NCBI GenBank assembly: GCA_964589775.1
Contig: CAZPUN010000045.1
Location: 1 to 13,432 of the forward strand
Direction: 5' to 3'
Length of the DNA: 13,432 nt
From: an uncultured archaeon
Lineage (GTDB): Archaea; Asgardarchaeota; Thorarchaeia; Thorarchaeales; CAZPUN01
Below the pieces are notes generated by a model. That model worked only from the letters and a program-made list of their open reading frames with translations, was not told the DNA's origin and ran no database searches. The position numbers and the translations under genes were made by a program. Positions 1,840-12,850 of the stretch are shown here, one piece after another; the first letter of the stretch is position 1; each line of letters starts with the position of its first letter.

Positions 1840-3225
1840 TTGTCTGAAGAAGAATTAAGGAGAGCTTTAGAGGCTGCAACCAAGAGTGCAGGTCAACAAT
1901 CTTATGAGGCTGCAGCACTCAAGTACGAGGAAGCAGCTAAACAAGCATTAGCTATGGGAGATACTGCACGTGCAAATCAATTATTTGAAAAGGCTGCCAG
2001 TACTTTTATTGAGGCTGGAGATCTTTTGACAAACAATAAACGATATAGGGGAGCTACATCTGCTTATGCTCATGCTGCGAGGATTTATGAGCAAATGAAG
2101 CAGCCAGCACTTGCGAAGAGGTTGTATCTTAAGGCTGCCCAGAGTGCCAGTAAATATGCAGATGACCTTGCAATGTTTGAAGAATATGCTAAGGCTGCAT
2201 CTATTGCAGTTGCTGCTGGATTCATTTACATATTGGGTGGCGATTCTGATACTGGAAATGATGTTGTAAATAGATTCAAGCAAAAGTATGGGTCTAAGGT
2301 AGTCACCCCAGATGCTCAGCGAATTCTATCCATACTTGAACTCATAAATAACGCGACGAAAACACTAAATGTTGACCTACTTTCCAGTGCTGAAAATATT
2401 ACACGTACCGAATTTCGAAGTGGTTTAGTTCAAGCCAAGAGTGAAGACCTATATCCAATAACTGAACGTGCATTTGAGCTCATACGCGAAAATATGCGTT
2501 CAAAGATTAAACTACCTAAAGTTATCGCAGAGCTGGAAATCCCGATTGATCTTACATTTAAAGAAGCATTCACTCTAAATCTAAATATTAAGAATATGGG
2601 TGATGGCGAGGCTAAGAATGTTACTGTTGAGTTCTTTGTTCCCGATGGCTTACAAGTTCTCTCAGGAAATGAACGCCAGACAATCCTGCGAATAAATCCC
2701 AACGAGACTCAAGTTGCATCATTAAAACTTAAAGCAACAACTGATATGGTTGGTGAGAAGACATATTCATTCAAGGCAAAAGTTTCATACATGGATATAC
2801 TTGGCTCCGCATATTCCATTCAAGTAGGACCCGTGGATATCGTTCTTCGTGATTATAAAGAATCTGAAAAATTAACAAAAGACGTATCTCAGCTGGAGGC
2901 AAAATTATCTAATCTTAAGCAGACAAGTCACGATACTGCCGCATTAGATGACATGCTGATGGACCGAATAATCAATATCTTCGAGCAGGCTGCGAAATCC
3001 GTATTAGCATCGATCTCTGAAAAAGATATGGCTAAAGCACGTTCAAGATATGAATTGACTGCAGAACTCGTCGATATGCTTGGAAATACAATCAATGATG
3101 AAGCATTGAAGAAGCAGCTTGCAGAGAACTTGGCAGCGAAGATCAACGAAGAAAAGCGCCGTATATTAACTGAGATGAAGGATAAAATAAACCAAATGTT
3201 TGCCGAATTAGAAAGAGAATTCTAA
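1840..3225 (+). CDS. Cytoplasmic multidomain protein: SNAP-like/TPR-like helical repeats (aa ~1-220), CARDB/NEW3-like Ig beta-sandwich (aa ~225-337), C-terminal helical/coiled-coil region
   Basis: TTG start preceded by GGAGGT. Repeated Y/F-x-x-A-A helical pattern (YEAAALKYEEAA, FEKAA, YAHAA, YLKAA). LNLNIKNMGDGEAKNVTV...INPNETQVASLKL...KVSYMD is a CARDB-like Ig signature. Heptad-like C-terminus. No signal peptide or TM segment. Confidence 0.75.
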   Translation: MSEEELRRALEAATKSAGQQSYEAAALKYEEAAKQALAMGDTARANQLFEKAASTFIEAGDLLTNNKRYRGATSAYAHAARIYEQMKQPALAKRLYLKAAQSASKYADDLAMFEEYAKAASIAVAAGFIYILGGDSDTGNDVVNRFKQKYGSKVVTPDAQRILSILELINNATKTLNVDLLSSAENITRTEFRSGLVQAKSEDLYPITERAFELIRENMRSKIKLPKVIAELEIPIDLTFKEAFTLNLNIKNMGDGEAKNVTVEFFVPDGLQVLSGNERQTILRINPNETQVASLKLKATTDMVGEKTYSFKAKVSYMDILGSAYSIQVGPVDIVLRDYKESEKLTKDVSQLEAKLSNLKQTSHDTAALDDMLMDRIINIFEQAAKSVLASISEKDMAKARSRYELTAELVDMLGNTINDEALKKQLAENLAAKINEEKRRILTEMKDKINQMFAELEREF

Positions 3226-5767: not shown

Positions 5768-6376
5768 ATGAAAATCGATATGCATATTCATTCTATGTAT
5801 TCGTCTGACTCTCACCTGACTATCCCAGACATTGCTCGAATAGCACAATCGCGGGGAATTGATGCGGTCATTATTACCGACCATGACTCCATGGAAGCTA
5901 TCCGTGATGTTAAGGCACAAAATACATTTTATGGTGTCAAGGTATTCGTAGGCTGTGAGGTATCTTCATCTGCAGGGCATATTTTAGCATATGGCATTTC
6001 TGAGCCACCTCCGCCTAAGATGGCTCCTGATTATACTCTTGAATTCATTCATGAACATGGTGGAATTGCAGTTGCGGCTCATCCATATCGAAAAATAGGT
6101 TTGGGTGTTGGAGATCTCGTCTTTGATTTACATTTCGACGCAATTGAAGTCATGAGTTCATCAGTCAACAAACATGCTTCAAAGTCTGCCATTCAATCTG
6201 CAAAACTTCTTAATTTGCCAATGCTTGCTGGTAGTGATGCACATAGATTAAGGCTTGTAGGCTCATATTACACGGAGTTTGATGATCCAATTGAAAATAT
6301 AGATGATCTAATAGAATCAATAAAGGCAAATAAGGTCCGGCCTGTTCGAAATAACATAAGTATGAAAAAAAGATGA
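5768..6376 (+). CDS. PHP-domain metal-dependent phosphoesterase (stand-alone archaeal type)
   Basis: DMHIHSMYSSD, ITDHD, GCEVS...GHILAYG, AAHPYR and GSDAH metal-binding motifs. Confidence 0.92.
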   Translation: MKIDMHIHSMYSSDSHLTIPDIARIAQSRGIDAVIITDHDSMEAIRDVKAQNTFYGVKVFVGCEVSSSAGHILAYGISEPPPPKMAPDYTLEFIHEHGGIAVAAHPYRKIGLGVGDLVFDLHFDAIEVMSSSVNKHASKSAIQSAKLLNLPMLAGSDAHRLRLVGSYYTEFDDPIENIDDLIESIKANKVRPVRNNISMKKR

Positions 6377-6387
6377 GACTCAGAGAA

Positions 6388-6786
6388 TTATTGTGATAAA
6401 GTTAGTGCTATTTTCTTTGCGTACCTTCTAAGTACTGTAATTAATAGACCCATTGATGTCATTTCTCTACCCGCTGCGGTTATGAGGAAATCTCCTGCGT
6501 TTGAAAATACCATGAATCCGGTTTTCCCGCGCACAGTTACTTCTACAAGGTCTCCTAAATTCATCTTTTCTGCAGCCATGCCTCCCGTTGCAAGTAACGC
6601 TGCGCTCATTGCCGCCATGAGGTCTGGGTCTACTGTTGAATCTTCTGTTGCAAAATACGCAACTTTGACTCCTTGCTTCGTAAATACGCCCACGGCCTCT
6701 AAGTCTTCTTCTTCATAAATTAAACTACTCAATATTTTATTGAGTTCTTGTTCTTTTTCAGGTGAAATTATTCCTATATTTGACAT
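6388..6786 (-). CDS. Roadblock/LC7 (LAMTOR2/MglB-like) domain protein
   Basis: Pattern L-x-x-I-L-x-x-L...LEAVGVFTKQGVKVA...DLMAAMSAALLATGGMAAEKMNLGDLVEVTVRGKTG...MGLLITVLRRYAKKI is typical of Roadblock domains. Purine-rich SD (GGGAGAGG) upstream. Confidence 0.9.
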   Translation of the reverse strand: MSNIGIISPEKEQELNKILSSLIYEEEDLEAVGVFTKQGVKVAYFATEDSTVDPDLMAAMSAALLATGGMAAEKMNLGDLVEVTVRGKTGFMVFSNAGDFLITAAGREMTSMGLLITVLRRYAKKIALTLSQ

Positions 6787-6807
6787 TTTTCCCTCTCCCT
6801 GTGTATT

Positions 6808-7836
6808 TTATTTTGGTACTAATTTCTTCTTTGGTTTGCCTTTCGGTTCGACTTGAGCTTCTTCGCTTTCACTCTTGAAGAATGTGATCAAGTCGCTTAA
6901 TCGTTCTTTCATCTCGCTCTTAATTGGACTTAATATTGCATCCGGAGTTCCTTTGAGAAATTCAATTGCAATTACTTTGCCATTTCTGATGATTACACGT
7001 GGAATGAATCCCTCTGCTAAGAATGTTCCTTCTGGAGGATTCTTAACTCGCTCGAGACGTTTTTCAACCTTTTCAGTTGTGAAGAACTTGATTTTATGTT
7101 CTGCTATTGTGAATAAATCATTGTTTATAACAACGAGTTCTTTCTTATAGCCTTTTGGTGGTTCGAGTGCTTGTAATTCTTGAATTATGGCTTGGATTTC
7201 GCTTGGTGTCATCTGAGTTGTTGGTTGAGCTGCGGCTTGTGCTGTTGCAGCAGCTGAAACTTGAGGTGCGGGTCTAGCCTTAGCTGTTGATGTGGTGGCG
7301 GCTGAAACTTGAGGTGCGGGTCTAGTAGTTGTAGTAGTGGGTGCGGGTCTAGTAGTTGTAGTAGTGGGTGCAGGACGGGAAGTAGTCGTAGTAGGTTGTG
7401 GGGCAGGTTTTGTAGTAGTTGTGGTAGTTGTAGTTGTTTTAGGTGCAGGACGGGAAGTAGTTGTAGTAGTTGTGGTAGTTGTAGTTGTGGGTTGTGGTTT
7501 GGGTTTTGGAGTTGGTTTGATGACCTTTTTTACAGGAGCTGAAGCTGCAGACCCAGTCAATGCAGCGAAAAATTGGGGTTTCTCATCGCCTTCATCCGTA
7601 GGCTTTACAGTATAATTAAATCCGTATTCAGACCTTAATTTTGTAGCGACTCTGGCTCCAATAAATTTCTTTCGTACTACTGCCTCTGAACCTTTCCAGA
7701 GCCATATTGTTTTTGAATCAGGATCCACAACAATAATTACTGATGTGGGTTTCAGAATATCTTTTGATGGTGTAACCGGGATGCTTTCACCATGCTCATT
7801 AACTTCAAAAGCGTCTACCATTCTAATCACTGACAT
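6808..7836 (-). CDS. Gelsolin/cofilin-like domain protein (Asgard 1DGelX-like): gelsolin-like domain, Thr/Pro-rich linker, C-terminal domain of unknown function
   Basis: aa 1-94: LKPTSVIIVVDPDSKTIWLWKGSEAVVRKKFIGARVATKLR...DEGDEKPQFFAAL matches the gelsolin-repeat signature (IWxWxG...A-x-x-A...EGxE-x-x-x-F). aa ~101-210 are low complexity. aa ~210-295 look globular (PPKGYKKELVVINN...PPEGTFLAEGFIPRVIIRNGKVIAIEFL). Start could be Met6 (7821). Confidence 0.82.
   Translation of the reverse strand: MSVIRMVDAFEVNEHGESIPVTPSKDILKPTSVIIVVDPDSKTIWLWKGSEAVVRKKFIGARVATKLRSEYGFNYTVKPTDEGDEKPQFFAALTGSAASAPVKKVIKPTPKPKPQPTTTTTTTTTTTSRPAPKTTTTTTTTTKPAPQPTTTTSRPAPTTTTTRPAPTTTTTRPAPQVSAATTSTAKARPAPQVSAAATAQAAAQPTTQMTPSEIQAIIQELQALEPPKGYKKELVVINNDLFTIAEHKIKFFTTEKVEKRLERVKNPPEGTFLAEGFIPRVIIRNGKVIAIEFLKGTPDAILSPIKSEMKERLSDLITFFKSESEEAQVEPKGKPKKKLVPK
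7253..7488. repeat. Intragenic nested tandem/direct repeats encoding the Thr/RPAP linker
   Basis: Perfect 27-bp tandem duplication (7313-7339 = 7340-7366). 25-bp direct repeat (7253-7277, 7301-7325). 20-bp repeat (7367-7386, 7442-7461). 28-bp repeat (7410-7437, 7461-7488). All periods are multiples of 3. Confidence 0.9.
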
Positions 7837-7921
7837 TTTTTAATTGAAACATAAATATCATAGCATTCATGCATTTGTAACTAATTATATTTCCTATTTT
7901 ATTAAATATAAATGTTATATA

Positions 7922-8950
7922 TTAAATAGTATTGTCATTTCTTATTAATATAATTTCTTCTTTTGGAATTTTTATGAATACATTTTTTCCTATTATTGAA
8001 GATATTGATTTATCCATTGGTAATATTGTCGCATATATTAATATACTTCCGATGCTAAGTTGTAGTTGCCATCGGCTTCTTCTGCGTGTAGCAAGTATTA
8101 CCTTTGCCTTCACTGTATTTTCGGATTGTGTGGATTTTACTTCCACGGATTCTGGTGAAAATGCAATGGCTTTAACTTTATTGTTCTCGGTTATATCTTG
8201 AAATATTTTTATCTTTTCTGCACTTTCGCGTGAAATTACATTCATTCCGATAAACTCTGCTACAAATTTATTCTTTGGTTGTTGAAGGATCTCTTCAGGA
8301 GTTCCGTTCTGTATTATGTATCCTTTATTCATAATTGAGATGCTATCTGAGATCGCAAATGCCTCTTCTTGCGAGTGTGTCACGTAAATTGTTGTTACAT
8401 TGAATTCTTGCTGGATTTTCCTAATCTCCCATTTTAGGCGTTCTCGTAACAATGCGTCGAGTGAAGATAGCGGCTCATCCATCAGTAGCACCTTTGGTTC
8501 AGGAGCTAATGCACGAGCTATCGCAACTCTTTGACCTTCGCCACCCGATATTTCATTTGGCATTTTCTTAAGTAAGTGCTTAATTTCAAGAATTTCCGCA
8601 AGTTCCATAACGCGTTCATGTGTCTTTTGTTGATCAACTTTTCGGACATCTAATCCAAATGCAATATTCTCATATACATTTAAATGTGGGAATAACGCTA
8701 CTGTCTGAAAAACCATGCCTATGTTTCTCTTTTGAGGTGGTATATCATTTACTACAACATCATCGAATTTTATTACGCCATCATCTGGTGTAATTAATCC
8801 TGCAATCATTCTTAGAGTTGTAGTCTTACCACAACCGCTAGGACCAAGAAGTGTATGCAGATTCCCATCTGGCACTGTTACATTGAGCGGTCCTATTTTA
8901 GTTCCGTCTGGAAATGTCTTTACCACATTTTCAAGAGATAATTTTACCAA
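7922..8950 (-). CDS. thiQ: ABC transporter ATP-binding subunit (thiamine; PotA/FbpC-like with C-terminal TOBE-like domain)
   Basis: Walker A GPSGCGKTT, Q-loop MVFQ, signature ISGGEGQRVAIARAL, Walker B LLMDEP, H-loop YVTH. The TTG start directly follows the thiP TAA, with GGAGG upstream. Substrate inferred from operon context. Confidence 0.88.
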   Translation of the reverse strand: MVKLSLENVVKTFPDGTKIGPLNVTVPDGNLHTLLGPSGCGKTTTLRMIAGLITPDDGVIKFDDVVVNDIPPQKRNIGMVFQTVALFPHLNVYENIAFGLDVRKVDQQKTHERVMELAEILEIKHLLKKMPNEISGGEGQRVAIARALAPEPKVLLMDEPLSSLDALLRERLKWEIRKIQQEFNVTTIYVTHSQEEAFAISDSISIMNKGYIIQNGTPEEILQQPKNKFVAEFIGMNVISRESAEKIKIFQDITENNKVKAIAFSPESVEVKSTQSENTVKAKVILATRRRSRWQLQLSIGSILIYATILPMDKSISSIIGKNVFIKIPKEEIILIRNDNTI

Positions 8951-10639
8951 TTAGAAATTCCCTCCGAACTGGCCTCGACTGAGCTTTTCGATTAAATAAA
9001 ACGCAATAATACAAATGATGATAAGAATTGATGATAGTGCTCCTGCATCTACAAATTTACGTGCCCCTAACAATTGATAGATTACAATTGTCATTGTCAC
9101 ATATTGCGGCTTTGCCAAGAAGTATGTAGCAGACATCTCTCCGATGCTCATAGCAAAAGCAAGAGTGGCTGCAACAAAGATTCCAGGTGCTATAATTGGT
9201 AACTCGACTCTAAAGAAGGTCTCTAATTTACTTGCGCCCAATGATTCTGCAGCACTTGTTATTTCTTTGTCCATTTGTTCTATTTGATTAGAGATTGCCC
9301 TTGTAGTAAATGGAAGCTCGATTAAAGTGTGTGCAAGTACTATTAATATCCACGGTTCAGATGAAAATATGGCGACTCTACCCCATACAAGTGAGAGACC
9401 TAACGCAAGGGTAATTGCAGAAATACCTAGCGGTGCCAGAATCATAAGATGATATATTTTACTTATTCTTCTAAATGCATCTCGAGTAAGAAAAGCTCCT
9501 AAAATCCCGATTAGAACAGACGCAGTGGTTGAAACAACCGCATAGAACATACTATTTACAACTGGTAATAATGCTGGTATTCCTAAATTAGGGTGGGTTG
9601 CCCATGTTAGCATTCGCTCATATCCTTGTAATGTAAATGAATTCGTGTATGGATCTATAAAAGACGTGATAAAGACTGAGACTAGTGGTCCGGTTAGGAG
9701 TATAATTAAAAATACTACGTATGTTAATAGTGCAAGAGCTCTTTTTCTCGTTAGTCCCGAATCTGGTCCTATCAGTCTCTTCTTTATTATGTTTGCTTTT
9801 GTTTGAACACGTTTTGAAAACGCCGCATTTGTTTTCAGATATATAATCGTAACCATGATCGTGGAAAATAACTGGATAACTGCAAGAGCAGATGCTCTAT
9901 CATAATCGAAATTTAAAAATGACGACCAAATCTGCACTTCAATAGTTCTAAAATAAGGCCCACCAAGAGCAAGTACTATTGTGAAGCTCATAAAACAGAA
10001 CAAAAAGATCAATAAAGCTGCGGAAATGAATCCAGGTGCAGTTAGCGGAAAAATGATTCGTTTGAATTTATGCCATCCGGAACTTCCTAATACTTCTGCA
10101 GCATCTTCAATATCTGAATTTATGCGTTCCCATACAGCTGAAATCATGAGTATTGCAATAGGTATATTGTAAAACACATGTGCAAGAACAATACCGAAAA
10201 ATCCAGATGCAAGATCAAATGTGGGAAAACCCGGACCAAAAATCGCTTTTAAAATCATATTGATGTATCCTTCACTTCCAAACATTCGCACAAAGCCAAC
10301 AACAACTACGATGGACGGCAACACAAAGGGTACCATAAGAAATGCACGAGCTAAGCTTTTCCCCTTAAACTCATATTTTGCAAGAACATAGGCTCCTGGA
10401 ATACTGAGTATTATGGTTATAATAGTACTTACTGTAGCCTCTTGAAATGTAAATATAATTGCTGCTTGGTCTAATGGTCTCATAAGAGATTCGATAATTG
10501 GCTGGAGCGTAAAATTTCCCCCGGACACAAACCCTCGTAGAACTATAAAAGCCACTGGATAATAGAAAAATAAAATCAGAAATAATATGGGGCTCGCAAT
10601 TGCTGTTATCCTAAGAATTTTCTGGATTTGTTGATTCAT
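8951..10639 (-). CDS. thiP: Thiamine ABC transporter permease (fused double permease, ThiP/FbpB type)
   Basis: About 12 hydrophobic segments, two EAA loops (IEDAAEVLGSS; ITSAAESLGAS), and PFVLPSIVV, AHVFYNIP and SFTIVLALGG motifs typical of ThiP. Adjacent to thiB. Confidence 0.88.
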   Translation of the reverse strand: MNQQIQKILRITAIASPILFLILFFYYPVAFIVLRGFVSGGNFTLQPIIESLMRPLDQAAIIFTFQEATVSTIITIILSIPGAYVLAKYEFKGKSLARAFLMVPFVLPSIVVVVGFVRMFGSEGYINMILKAIFGPGFPTFDLASGFFGIVLAHVFYNIPIAILMISAVWERINSDIEDAAEVLGSSGWHKFKRIIFPLTAPGFISAALLIFLFCFMSFTIVLALGGPYFRTIEVQIWSSFLNFDYDRASALAVIQLFSTIMVTIIYLKTNAAFSKRVQTKANIIKKRLIGPDSGLTRKRALALLTYVVFLIILLTGPLVSVFITSFIDPYTNSFTLQGYERMLTWATHPNLGIPALLPVVNSMFYAVVSTTASVLIGILGAFLTRDAFRRISKIYHLMILAPLGISAITLALGLSLVWGRVAIFSSEPWILIVLAHTLIELPFTTRAISNQIEQMDKEITSAAESLGASKLETFFRVELPIIAPGIFVAATLAFAMSIGEMSATYFLAKPQYVTMTIVIYQLLGARKFVDAGALSSILIIICIIAFYLIEKLSRGQFGGNF

Positions 10640-10684
10640 ACGTGCCCCATTCCTTTATTCCTTATATTTTATTCTATCTGATAC

Positions 10685-11815
10685 TTAACTCGACATTATT
10701 GTTTGCCAATCTTCAAGCCATGTGGACAAATTCGTTTCAATCTCATTATATGATAAAAGCTGATTGAGCTGATAAACATTGTATGGGTCAATTGCGTAAT
10801 CATAGCATTCTGGTAATTTTGCATGCGTATTCGCAGGATACATCCAGTTGTTTGTGGGAATGAGCTCTTGAACTTGAACACTCAGGAAGTAGTCTATGAA
10901 CTTCTTAGCGAGTTCTGCATGCTTTGCGTTTTTAACAAGTCCGATACCTTCAATCTGCATCCAACCACATGGCTGACCATTGTCTCTAGTCAATGTGGCA
11001 TTAGTTGTTGTGCTATTGTAAAAGTACATTGAATATGCCGCATCTGTTCCATAACTTACAACCATATGCCTGTTTGCCTCTGGTGTAAAGAACAGATCAT
11101 ATGCCTCAGACCATCCTGAAGCTACCCGCACTTTACCTTTTATTGCCTGCCACCATGTCTTCCAATCCTTATGTAGAATCTTTTCATATACTGCAATCTG
11201 ACTTAACAGAAATGATAACCCTGGACTACTAAGTGTGGGATTCTCCACAATTAATGTATTCGCAAAGGTATCGTTTAATAGATCTTCAAATGTCAAATTA
11301 TTGATGTTTGGCGTTGTGGTTGAATTAAGATGAGTCATATCATAAACAAGTGCGATTAATCCATAATCGAAAGGTGTTACATGATGCTCTGGATCCAATT
11401 CGCTGATTAGATCCGGTCTGATTTGTGAGATGTTTTGTGGTGTGTATGGTTCAAATAAATCATTCGCAAGAGCTTCGTGTATAAGAATATTATCAACGCC
11501 AATAATTACATCAGCTGTGGGATTATCCTTTTCTTGAATTGCAGTAAGCATCATCTCGCGAGCATCCGAAAATGCCTTCCTGATTTCAATTTTCACATTG
11601 TACATCCGCTCAAAGTTGCCAAATACTTGATCATATGTCTTGTTAGCATCTTTGCCCCATGCTAGCAAGCTGTCGTAAGTATAAATTACAAGATCAGGTT
11701 CCTTGTGCGATGTCATATTTATGACTTGAAAAGCTCCAATGGCTATTATTGCTATTATTAAAACTCCCGCGATTATCTTGCGGGAATCGCGTGCTCTCCT
11801 AAATTCATCCGACAT
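10685..11815 (-). CDS. thiB: Thiamine ABC transporter substrate-binding protein with N-terminal TM anchor
   Basis: LVIYTYDSL, ADVIIGVDN, PFDYG, ENPTLSSPGLSFL, GWSEAY, MVVSYGTD, QIEG and IPTNNWMYPAN are TbpA/ThiB hallmarks. Hydrophobic anchor at aa ~14-32. Confidence 0.93.
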   Translation of the reverse strand: MSDEFRRARDSRKIIAGVLIIAIIAIGAFQVINMTSHKEPDLVIYTYDSLLAWGKDANKTYDQVFGNFERMYNVKIEIRKAFSDAREMMLTAIQEKDNPTADVIIGVDNILIHEALANDLFEPYTPQNISQIRPDLISELDPEHHVTPFDYGLIALVYDMTHLNSTTTPNINNLTFEDLLNDTFANTLIVENPTLSSPGLSFLLSQIAVYEKILHKDWKTWWQAIKGKVRVASGWSEAYDLFFTPEANRHMVVSYGTDAAYSMYFYNSTTTNATLTRDNGQPCGWMQIEGIGLVKNAKHAELAKKFIDYFLSVQVQELIPTNNWMYPANTHAKLPECYDYAIDPYNVYQLNQLLSYNEIETNLSTWLEDWQTIMSS

Positions 11816-11835
11816 TTCTTTTGCCTCGATAAATT

Positions 11836-11853
11836 TATAAGTGGGTTATATAA
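11836..11853. promoter_or_regulatory. Candidate ThiR operator (TATAA-N5-TTATA) overlapping a TATA box (TTATATAA)
   Basis: Inverted repeat at 11836-11850 in the 96-bp thiB/thiR divergent intergenic region. TTATATAA at 11846-11853 lies ~31-38 nt upstream of the thiB ATG. Confidence 0.55.
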
Positions 11854-11911
11854 TTAAATTATCAAAAAAGCTTGACATGCATTCATTAATTAAATTTTTG
11901 GTGGCATCATA

Positions 11912-12850
11912 ATGAGACCCCCCTGTGAAATTGCTACTAAGGAATTTATTCCGCTATTTCGGTATTATCTTACGCATGAATTGAGAAAGCGAGGGTTCAA
12001 GCAGACTCAGATTAGCAAATTATTGGGCATCACACAAGCAGCAGTTAGTGGATATTTATCAAAGCGAATTAAGGGTAATAGAGACATTGAGGAATTCATA
12101 ATCGGGCGTATTGGAACCATTGTAGAAGATCTGTTATCTCATTATAGTGCATCAAAATTAATCTATCATACCTGCAGTTTGTGTTATGAGTTACGTGCTG
12201 GGGGTGGTATTTGTGTTCTTCATAAGAAAGCAATACCTGAACTTGAATCTGAGAATTGTTCTATTTGTGAAGAATCTCCATTTAATCAAACCGATGCATT
12301 TGGAGAGCGTGTTTCTGCATTGAATCACATGAAGAATGCAATAAGTCTTTTACAAAGTCAAGATGGTGTCGGATATCTTGTGCCTGAAGTTATGATGAAT
12401 ATCGTTTATGCATTAAAGGATGCGAAGACAACGCAGGATGTAGTTGCGATTCCAGGTAGAATCGTCAAAATAAAATCCAAGATCAAACCGAGTGCAAATC
12501 CTGCATTTGGTGGTTCTGAGCATATGTCTAAATTAATTATTAGAATTATGAAATATCTTCCTGATGCAAGATCAATGATTTGTGTTGATTCGAATGAGAC
12601 AATTCAACAAGCAGTGAAATCTGTGGGGATTCCTTTCTTTATTTGTGATAACATCCCCGACAAAACTGAAGAGGAGATCATTGAAAAATGTCTTATGAAG
12701 CATGAATCAGAATTACAAAATCCTTTTGCGATTTTGGTTCCTGAGGCTCCCGGAAGAGAATCTCTAATCTATATAGTGGATAAACTTCCAGAATATATTT
12801 CGCAACAAATAATAAAAATCATAAAAGAAATGAGGAAAATAAAAGAATAG
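11912..12850 (+). CDS. thiR: ThiR thiamine-responsive transcriptional regulator (N-terminal HTH plus ThiN-like domain)
   Basis: MRPPCE...GFKQTQISKLLGITQAAVSGYL (XRE-type HTH), Cys-rich linker, then ThiN-like LVPEVMMNIVYAL...DVVAIPGRIV...PAFGGSEHM. Divergent from the thiamine transporter. Confidence 0.88.
   Translation: MRPPCEIATKEFIPLFRYYLTHELRKRGFKQTQISKLLGITQAAVSGYLSKRIKGNRDIEEFIIGRIGTIVEDLLSHYSASKLIYHTCSLCYELRAGGGICVLHKKAIPELESENCSICEESPFNQTDAFGERVSALNHMKNAISLLQSQDGVGYLVPEVMMNIVYALKDAKTTQDVVAIPGRIVKIKSKIKPSANPAFGGSEHMSKLIIRIMKYLPDARSMICVDSNETIQQAVKSVGIPFFICDNIPDKTEEEIIEKCLMKHESELQNPFAILVPEAPGRESLIYIVDKLPEYISQQIIKIIKEMRKIKE

Follow-up and report, generated by a model that had tools for sequence, protein, structure and literature searches.

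A conserved 1DGelX-Roadblock gene pair as a candidate actin-regulatory module in Asgard archaea

Asgard archaea crawl and reshape themselves by means of an actin cytoskeleton whose presumed regulators are gelsolins and profilins (PMC13716822). This report concerns a pair of genes on a 13,432-nt stretch of DNA (contig CAZPUN010000045.1 of assembly GCA_964589775.1; "the window" hereafter means this whole stretch) from an uncultured archaeon of the order Thorarchaeales. The first gene encodes a gelsolin-like protein of the 1DGelX type, and the second, directly downstream, a small Roadblock/LC7 protein. The two genes stand side by side in many other Asgard lineages, and the pair is examined here as a candidate module in which the Roadblock protein would act on or with the actin regulator.

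Gene layout and transcription signals

The pair and the stretches that bound it are as follows (SD, Shine-Dalgarno sequence).

6808-7836 (-): 1DGelX-type gene, 342 aa, with gelsolin domain, linker, domain X and basic tail (open reading frame, ORF, and translation)
6388-6786 (-): Roadblock/LC7 gene, 132 aa, belonging to the orthologous subfamily linked to 1DGelX
6787-6807 (-): intergenic gap of 21 nt, with the SD-like GGGAGAGGG and no T-run
7837-7921 (-): AT-rich spacer of 85 nt that separates the 1DGelX start from the ABC ATPase gene (read directly)
6365-6371 (-): T7 run, a terminator-like oligo-T 17 nt past the Roadblock stop, within the 3' end of the convergent PHP gene

The gap between the two co-oriented genes reads AATACACAGGGAGAGGGAAAA, and the SD-like GGGAGAGGG sits 5-13 nt 5' of the Roadblock ATG. 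Upstream of the pair, the spacer has a G+C content of 15% against a window mean of 37%. It contains TATA-like TTTATA/TTTAAT at -76/-70 as well as ATATTTAT about 20 nt 5' of the 1DGelX ATG, and is likely to be the promoter region of the pair. As no SD was seen before the 1DGelX start in this 85-nt spacer, the transcript may be leaderless. On the other side, the T7 run is the sole T-run of five or more after the pair (one further lies inside the 1DGelX gene) and may act as a terminator. The PHP gene (5768-6376, plus strand) is convergent and ends 11 nt from the Roadblock stop.

Co-orientation, the 21-nt gap, GGGAGAGGG as a motif resembling a ribosome-binding site, the lack of a T-run between the genes and the T7 run after them give the pair the appearance of a two-gene operon, and in this lineage 1DGelX and Roadblock are probably co-transcribed. 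An earlier first-pass annotation of this DNA had described the same spacing, SD, operon-like look and boundaries (the convergent PHP gene and the AT-rich spacer), all of which were confirmed on reading the sequence. It had also reported that the window holds no small GTPase; indeed, none of the 16 window ORFs scanned matches a GTPase family in Pfam.

The 1DGelX protein and its domain X

Three segments can be delineated in the first product.

7561-7821 (-): gelsolin/cofilin-like domain, aa 6-92 (phmmer against the PDB)
7222-7551 (-): Thr/Pro-rich repetitive linker, aa 96-205, of tandem TTTTTRPAP-type units (translation)
6853-7206 (-): domain X, aa 211-328 (AlphaFold2 model, mean predicted local distance difference test, pLDDT, 89)

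A Pfam scan of the 342-aa protein gave no match at E <=0.01, and the gelsolin assignment therefore rests on solved Asgard relatives. In the phmmer search, aa 6-92 match the Thor ProGel chain 7c2f_B (E 6e-12) and also the 2DGel chains 7c2h_G and 7whf_G (E ~1e-5), so that the gene first called gelsolin-like deserves the name. The protein shares its N-terminal gelsolin domain, linker and C-terminal domain X with Thorarchaeota 1DGelX (Akil et al. 2020, PNAS, PMC7444086), and the window genome falls in one order with the Thorarchaeota SMTZ1-45 and AB_25. Assayed on rabbit actin, the 1DGelX of Thorarchaeota SMTZ1-83 binds, nucleates at low ratios, sequesters 1:1 and severs; its severing is calcium-independent, and the function of domain X was left unexplained (PMC7444086). 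By analogy, the window protein may bind actin and sever it without calcium, the experiments being those on the SMTZ1-83 relative and rabbit actin only. Compared with the characterised 1DGelX, the window linker is unusually long and repetitive; among orthologues the linker aligns poorly and varies strongly in length, with whole proteins of 273-343 aa.

The model of domain X, built from a 38-sequence alignment, begins with a helix, continues with five antiparallel strands and ends in a helix of 31 residues, whereas the 1DGelX study predicted a coiled coil by I-TASSER (PMC7444086). Three residues, G270, R280 and E292 in whole-protein numbering, are invariant in the domain X alignment (A1). Structure searches returned no clear homologue in the PDB with Foldseek (best E 0.14) and no convincing one in a wide VIA search (best Z 4.0, mostly on the long helix). 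An Atlas search gave only Asgard clusters (template-modelling score, TM, 0.50-0.59) and loose Cache/PAS-like sensor domains (TM 0.42-0.54). The closest of these clusters (TM 0.59 over 102 residues) consists of 387-aa proteins with Rho_N/SAP/HeH domains, all from Asgard archaea, and cores resembling domain X may occur in other architectures. The idea that domain X is itself a heterodimerising Roadblock domain was rejected, as its order of elements, a helix, five strands and a helix, has no central helix.

Domain X was found in 267 of the 301 genomes sampled across the phylum. Of 65 distinct homologues that carry it, all but two, one of them cut at a contig end, also have a gelsolin-domain match. 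A profile search among 1.84 billion representatives retrieved 244 proteins, mostly of 270-320 aa and with domain X at the C-terminus. Domain X is rare, was seen only in Asgard archaea in the genome and record searches, and nearly always comes together with a gelsolin domain.

The Roadblock protein and its subfamily

Roadblock proteins such as MglB, LC7 and LAMTOR are small dimeric platforms that regulate or scaffold their partners. The second product matches PF03259 (Robl_LC7) with 30.4 bits against a cut-off of 23 (E 3.3e-7), and no other Pfam family. Its model (pLDDT 89) runs H9-25, E29-36, E41-46, H54-74, E82-86, E91-97, E100-106 and H112-131 (H, helix; E, strand), a canonical, MglB-like predicted fold with a C-terminal helix, which bears out the first-pass naming of the gene. 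Foldseek gave 168 matches in the PDB at E <=0.001, and the 50 listed are all of the Roadblock fold (Roadblock, MglB/MglC, LAMTOR/MP1-p14). The best are 9JUE, 7YH1, MglB 3T1R (TM 0.87), 7F8M and LAMTOR.

Relatedness of the Roadblock, longin and profilin folds has been noted, and the equivalent region of profilin binds actin (PMC10933270). On these grounds the Roadblock protein might itself bind actin through its profilin-related alpha/beta fold and cooperate with 1DGelX on actin instead of binding 1DGelX. However, the model retains the full central helix and the canonical order of elements, its top structural matches are all Roadblock, MglB or LAMTOR, and Robl_LC7 is its sole Pfam assignment. 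Such a role is very improbable, and a Roadblock protein that acts on or with 1DGelX remains the preferred reading.

The solved Asgard Roadblocks (MK-D1 Roadblock3 homodimer 9JUE, MK-D1 7YH1 and Thor SMTZ1-45 7F8M; PMC10933270) are the best matches in both structure and sequence. All are dimers, and dimerisation of the window protein is predicted by analogy with these closest solved relatives. They are paralogues only 20-23% identical to it, and none belongs to the 1DGelX-linked subfamily: the 1DGelX-linked Roadblock of Thor SMTZ1-45 matches 7F8M at only E 1e-8, and that of a Loki-type genome matched no solved chain.

That subfamily is well delimited. A profile of the linked Roadblocks scores the window protein at 175 bits and the next paralogue in the genome at 57 bits. 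Every linked Roadblock groups, by maximum likelihood, within a single clade of the tree (support 99/94), which also takes in the unlinked best matches of four families (f16, f13, f6 and f4 in our labelling of the families sampled). The tree also includes seven own-genome paralogues, all of them outside this clade. On another contig, the window genome carries four Roadblock-domain genes within 2.3 kb (G000:C57:40362-42655).

With Ragulator/LAMTOR and dynein LC7 the protein shares the Roadblock fold (p14/MP1 and LAMTOR matches) and the general notion of a small dimeric adaptor serving as the scaffold for a larger machine. In contrast to these systems, there is no sign here of Rag-type GTPases, heterodimeric Roadblock pairs or dynein, and the linked partner is of the gelsolin type.

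MglB is the Roadblock GTPase-activating protein (GAP) of the MglA GTPase. The window protein has the same fold as MglB over nearly its full length, including the C-terminal helix (3T1R, 1J3W and 6HJM, TM 0.83-0.87); superposition of its model on MglB of T. thermophilus and M. xanthus takes in 129-130 of the 132 residues at TM 0.87, although sequence identity is only 13-15%. This resemblance favours co-regulation without contact: the Roadblock protein would be an MglB-like GAP or guanine-nucleotide exchange factor (GEF) platform for a GTPase encoded elsewhere, with 1DGelX as a co-expressed downstream effector in the same polarity or motility programme. It fits such a role that the GTPase genes of MK-D1 are reported generally not to share operons with Roadblock genes (Tran et al., PMC10933270). 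Set against the MglA/MglB module, however, the window shows no adjacent GTPase gene and the conserved neighbour is an actin regulator. Neither was a GTPase gene found in the Pfam-scanned flanks of the pair in five other lineages. Further, co-regulation would not need a Roadblock subfamily so specific as to follow a single gelsolin paralogue. Possible but unlikely, it is ranked as the main rival to the preferred reading.

Conservation of the adjacency across Asgard archaea

In the window genome (2.16 Mb, 97% complete) 1DGelX occurs once and Roadblock-domain matches number 13, and the chance of finding a Roadblock gene directly downstream of a random gene is roughly 0.6%. The pairing is thus rare at random and also recurs across the phylum; it does not stem from chance. 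A 1DGelX match is present in 40 of 40 relatives of the same order, and every fetched locus of that order has a co-oriented Roadblock orthologue, 53-59% identical, directly downstream. Across Thorarchaeota, each of the roughly 80 loci examined, those of SMTZ1-45 and AB_25 among them, has the same Roadblock orthologue after 1DGelX on the same strand. Intergenic gaps range from -95 to 146 nt in the order of the window and from -95 to 180 nt over all linked loci, the negative values probably stemming from over-extended ORF starts. Among named records, the pair occurs in 28 Thorarchaeota assemblies and two Odinarchaeia assemblies; the former include SMTZ1-45 and AB_25, congeners of the SMTZ1-83 that yielded the characterised 1DGelX.

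Beyond the Thorarchaeota, the co-oriented pair was found in families f21, f3 (Odin), f9, f12, f15, f24, f14 and f27. Overall it is kept co-oriented in ten families and at least five contexts. Of 58 distinct orthologous sequences upstream of the Roadblock start, 47 carry an SD-like motif of the GAGG/GGAG type. Among the findings that would refute its reading, the first-pass annotation had named an adjacency not conserved in related genomes; the adjacency is in fact kept by all the Thorarchaeota loci examined, by Odinarchaeia and by no fewer than seven further families.

Inherited gene order that has no functional meaning, whether called neutral synteny or hitch-hiking, is another candidate explanation. 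Within Thorarchaeota the ABC ATPase gene upstream (38 loci) and an aminotransferase gene downstream (33 loci) are partly kept, and elsewhere linkage has been lost several times while both genes survived. As the Thor loci are kin and partly share this wider synteny, their count carries little weight, and it is the comparison across classes that matters, because flanks differ between lineages. In Odin and f21 the pair lies between Nnr upstream and PGM/PMM downstream; in f9, between Nnr and a vWA/copine-like protein; in f12, between seryl-tRNA synthetase and an HD phosphohydrolase; and in f15, between a thermosome subunit and a phosphodiesterase. Order and orientation of the pair are constant through these changing flanks. 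Its survival in at least five flanking contexts over class-level divergence argues against neutral synteny, as do the constant orientation, the short gaps and the SD-like motif kept before the second gene. Mere inheritance of gene order is improbable, and the record fits a functional module better.

The association is also selective. The Roadblock gene accompanies only the best-scoring 1DGelX copy, and the 1DGelX paralogues of Loki-type genomes have no Roadblock neighbour. In the window genome, two weak gelsolin-domain matches lie on contigs that bear no Roadblock match.

Exceptions to the linkage

The linkage is not obligate. In seven of the families sampled (f7, f19, f16, f13, f6, f5 and f22) the two genes are not adjacent; f7 appears, from its similarity to the Jordarchaeum record L118, to be Jordarchaeia-like. 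One f24 locus has the Roadblock gene inverted, and in f28 a longer Roadblock-domain protein is encoded 642 nt downstream of 1DGelX. Both genes are lacking in f17 and f20, and this joint absence supports the module reading.

Several observations weigh against a module. Five of the unlinked families (f16, f13, f6, f19 and f7) keep 1DGelX and have the Roadblock orthologue elsewhere, among unrelated housekeeping genes; the neighbours of such unlinked orthologues include TFIIB, eIF5A, PAC2 and a metallophosphoesterase. In f4, sampled through two genomes (87% and 92% complete), the Roadblock orthologue (150 bits) is kept with no domain X detectable, even by profile. This persistence of the Roadblock orthologue away from 1DGelX, and even in its absence, would be in keeping with co-regulation without contact. 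Owing to the partly kept wider synteny, many Thorarchaeota loci are not independent. The gaps of 42-180 nt in Loki-type families are AT-rich and have no SD; a separate promoter may serve the Roadblock gene in these families, and co-transcription may therefore not be universal. Recombinant 1DGelX acts alone on rabbit actin (PMC7444086), and the main text on the L. ossiferum Lokiactin co-immunoprecipitation lists gelsolins, profilin and an ARF GTPase and never a Roadblock (PMC13716822). A weaker point is that searches with the Roadblock protein and with its alignment (A2) among longer proteins found no fused gelsolin-Roadblock protein.

Proposed function

On balance, the gene pair is probably a conserved functional module in which the Roadblock protein acts on or with 1DGelX. 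Directly shown are the structure of the genes, the identity of their domains, the orthology and an adjacency conserved between classes while its surroundings change. A dedicated Roadblock subfamily tracks one gelsolin paralogue, and a regulatory subunit is therefore the simplest reading.

The first product would be an actin regulator of the 1DGelX type, like its SMTZ1-83 relative, and the second a dedicated Roadblock of one orthologous subfamily, forming a dimeric platform in the manner of MglB, LC7 and LAMTOR. Co-transcribed with 1DGelX, the Roadblock protein would bind it, most likely via domain X or the linker. As a regulatory or adaptor subunit, it could regulate, dimerise or localise a severing activity that otherwise has no known switch. 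We infer co-transcription, physical contact and regulation of severing alike. A complex prediction for domain X (A1) with the Roadblock protein (A2) gave scores of 0.17 and 0.19 against a mark of 0.32, and counts neither way.

In a bolder form of the proposal, the Roadblock dimer would bind domain X and switch or localise calcium-independent severing in response to a small GTPase, and so tie a Roadblock-GTPase platform directly to actin remodelling, as an ancestral link that predates eukaryotes. This is rather unlikely. Coupling to GTPase signalling, suggested by the first-pass annotation, found no support because neither the window nor the scanned flanks of the five lineages contain a GTPase gene.

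Other neighbouring genes

Upstream of the pair, 7922-12850 holds an ABC transporter (ATPase, 562-aa permease and solute-binding protein) beside a divergent HTH-ThiN gene, and looks like an ordinary cluster for thiamine-related uptake and salvage. The ABC ATPase gene has an ABC_tran match only and adjoins the permease, binding protein and ThiN genes; the label thiQ is plausible for it.

The plus strand at 1840-3225 encodes a 461-aa protein that combines a SNAP-like helical part with a CARDB/Ig domain and a coiled coil. Homologues lie about 2-5 kb from the pair in about 20 of 32 Thorarchaeota genomes. In f4, where 1DGelX was not detected, the Roadblock orthologue has a homologue of this protein (24% identity, E 4e-22) at a distance of about 0.85 kb. 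In a genome of f16, 2.3 kb separate the homologue of this protein from a weak Roadblock paralogue of 42 bits (G077:C4:1102466-1106102). The SNAP-like/Ig protein was rejected as a general third partner, being unlinked in Odin, f21, f9, f12, f15, f24, f14, f16, f13 and f19. It is possible that it is a second partner of the linked Roadblock subfamily.

In Loki-type f9 and f24 (L069, L070 and L074), a gene for 720-770 aa follows the pair to make a trio, and the copy in L070 is vWA/copine-like by Pfam. The vWA/copine gene was rejected as a member here, since its homologue in the window genome (G000:C36:5884-7164, 442 aa) is unlinked, on another contig. As for the PHP gene, no counterpart of it was found beside the pair in Thorarchaeota relatives. 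PHP homologues do occur in the 1DGelX loci of Jordarchaeia-type lineages (L063, L118 and L119), where Roadblock is not adjacent; in L063 the homologue is convergent beside 1DGelX.

Novelty and significance

The component families are known, and the conserved pairing is the new element. The first-pass annotation knew of no account of such a pairing, and the searchable literature indeed contains no description of it. Akil et al. treat 1DGelX as a stand-alone protein and do not mention Roadblock or the downstream gene (PMC7444086), and the paper on Asgard Roadblock structures is silent on gelsolin (PMC10933270). The literature that names roadblock, gelsolin and Asgard together lists the two only as separate eukaryotic signature proteins, and the text of the 2026 paper on L. 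ossiferum motility leaves Roadblock unmentioned (PMC13716822).

For a potent severing protein that has no calcium switch, the conserved Roadblock neighbour is a concrete candidate regulator. Asgard archaea have many Roadblock paralogues, and a partnership with 1DGelX would give one of them a first function. Binding between the two proteins would in addition give domain X a role and link a Roadblock platform to actin instead of to dynein or Rag GTPases.

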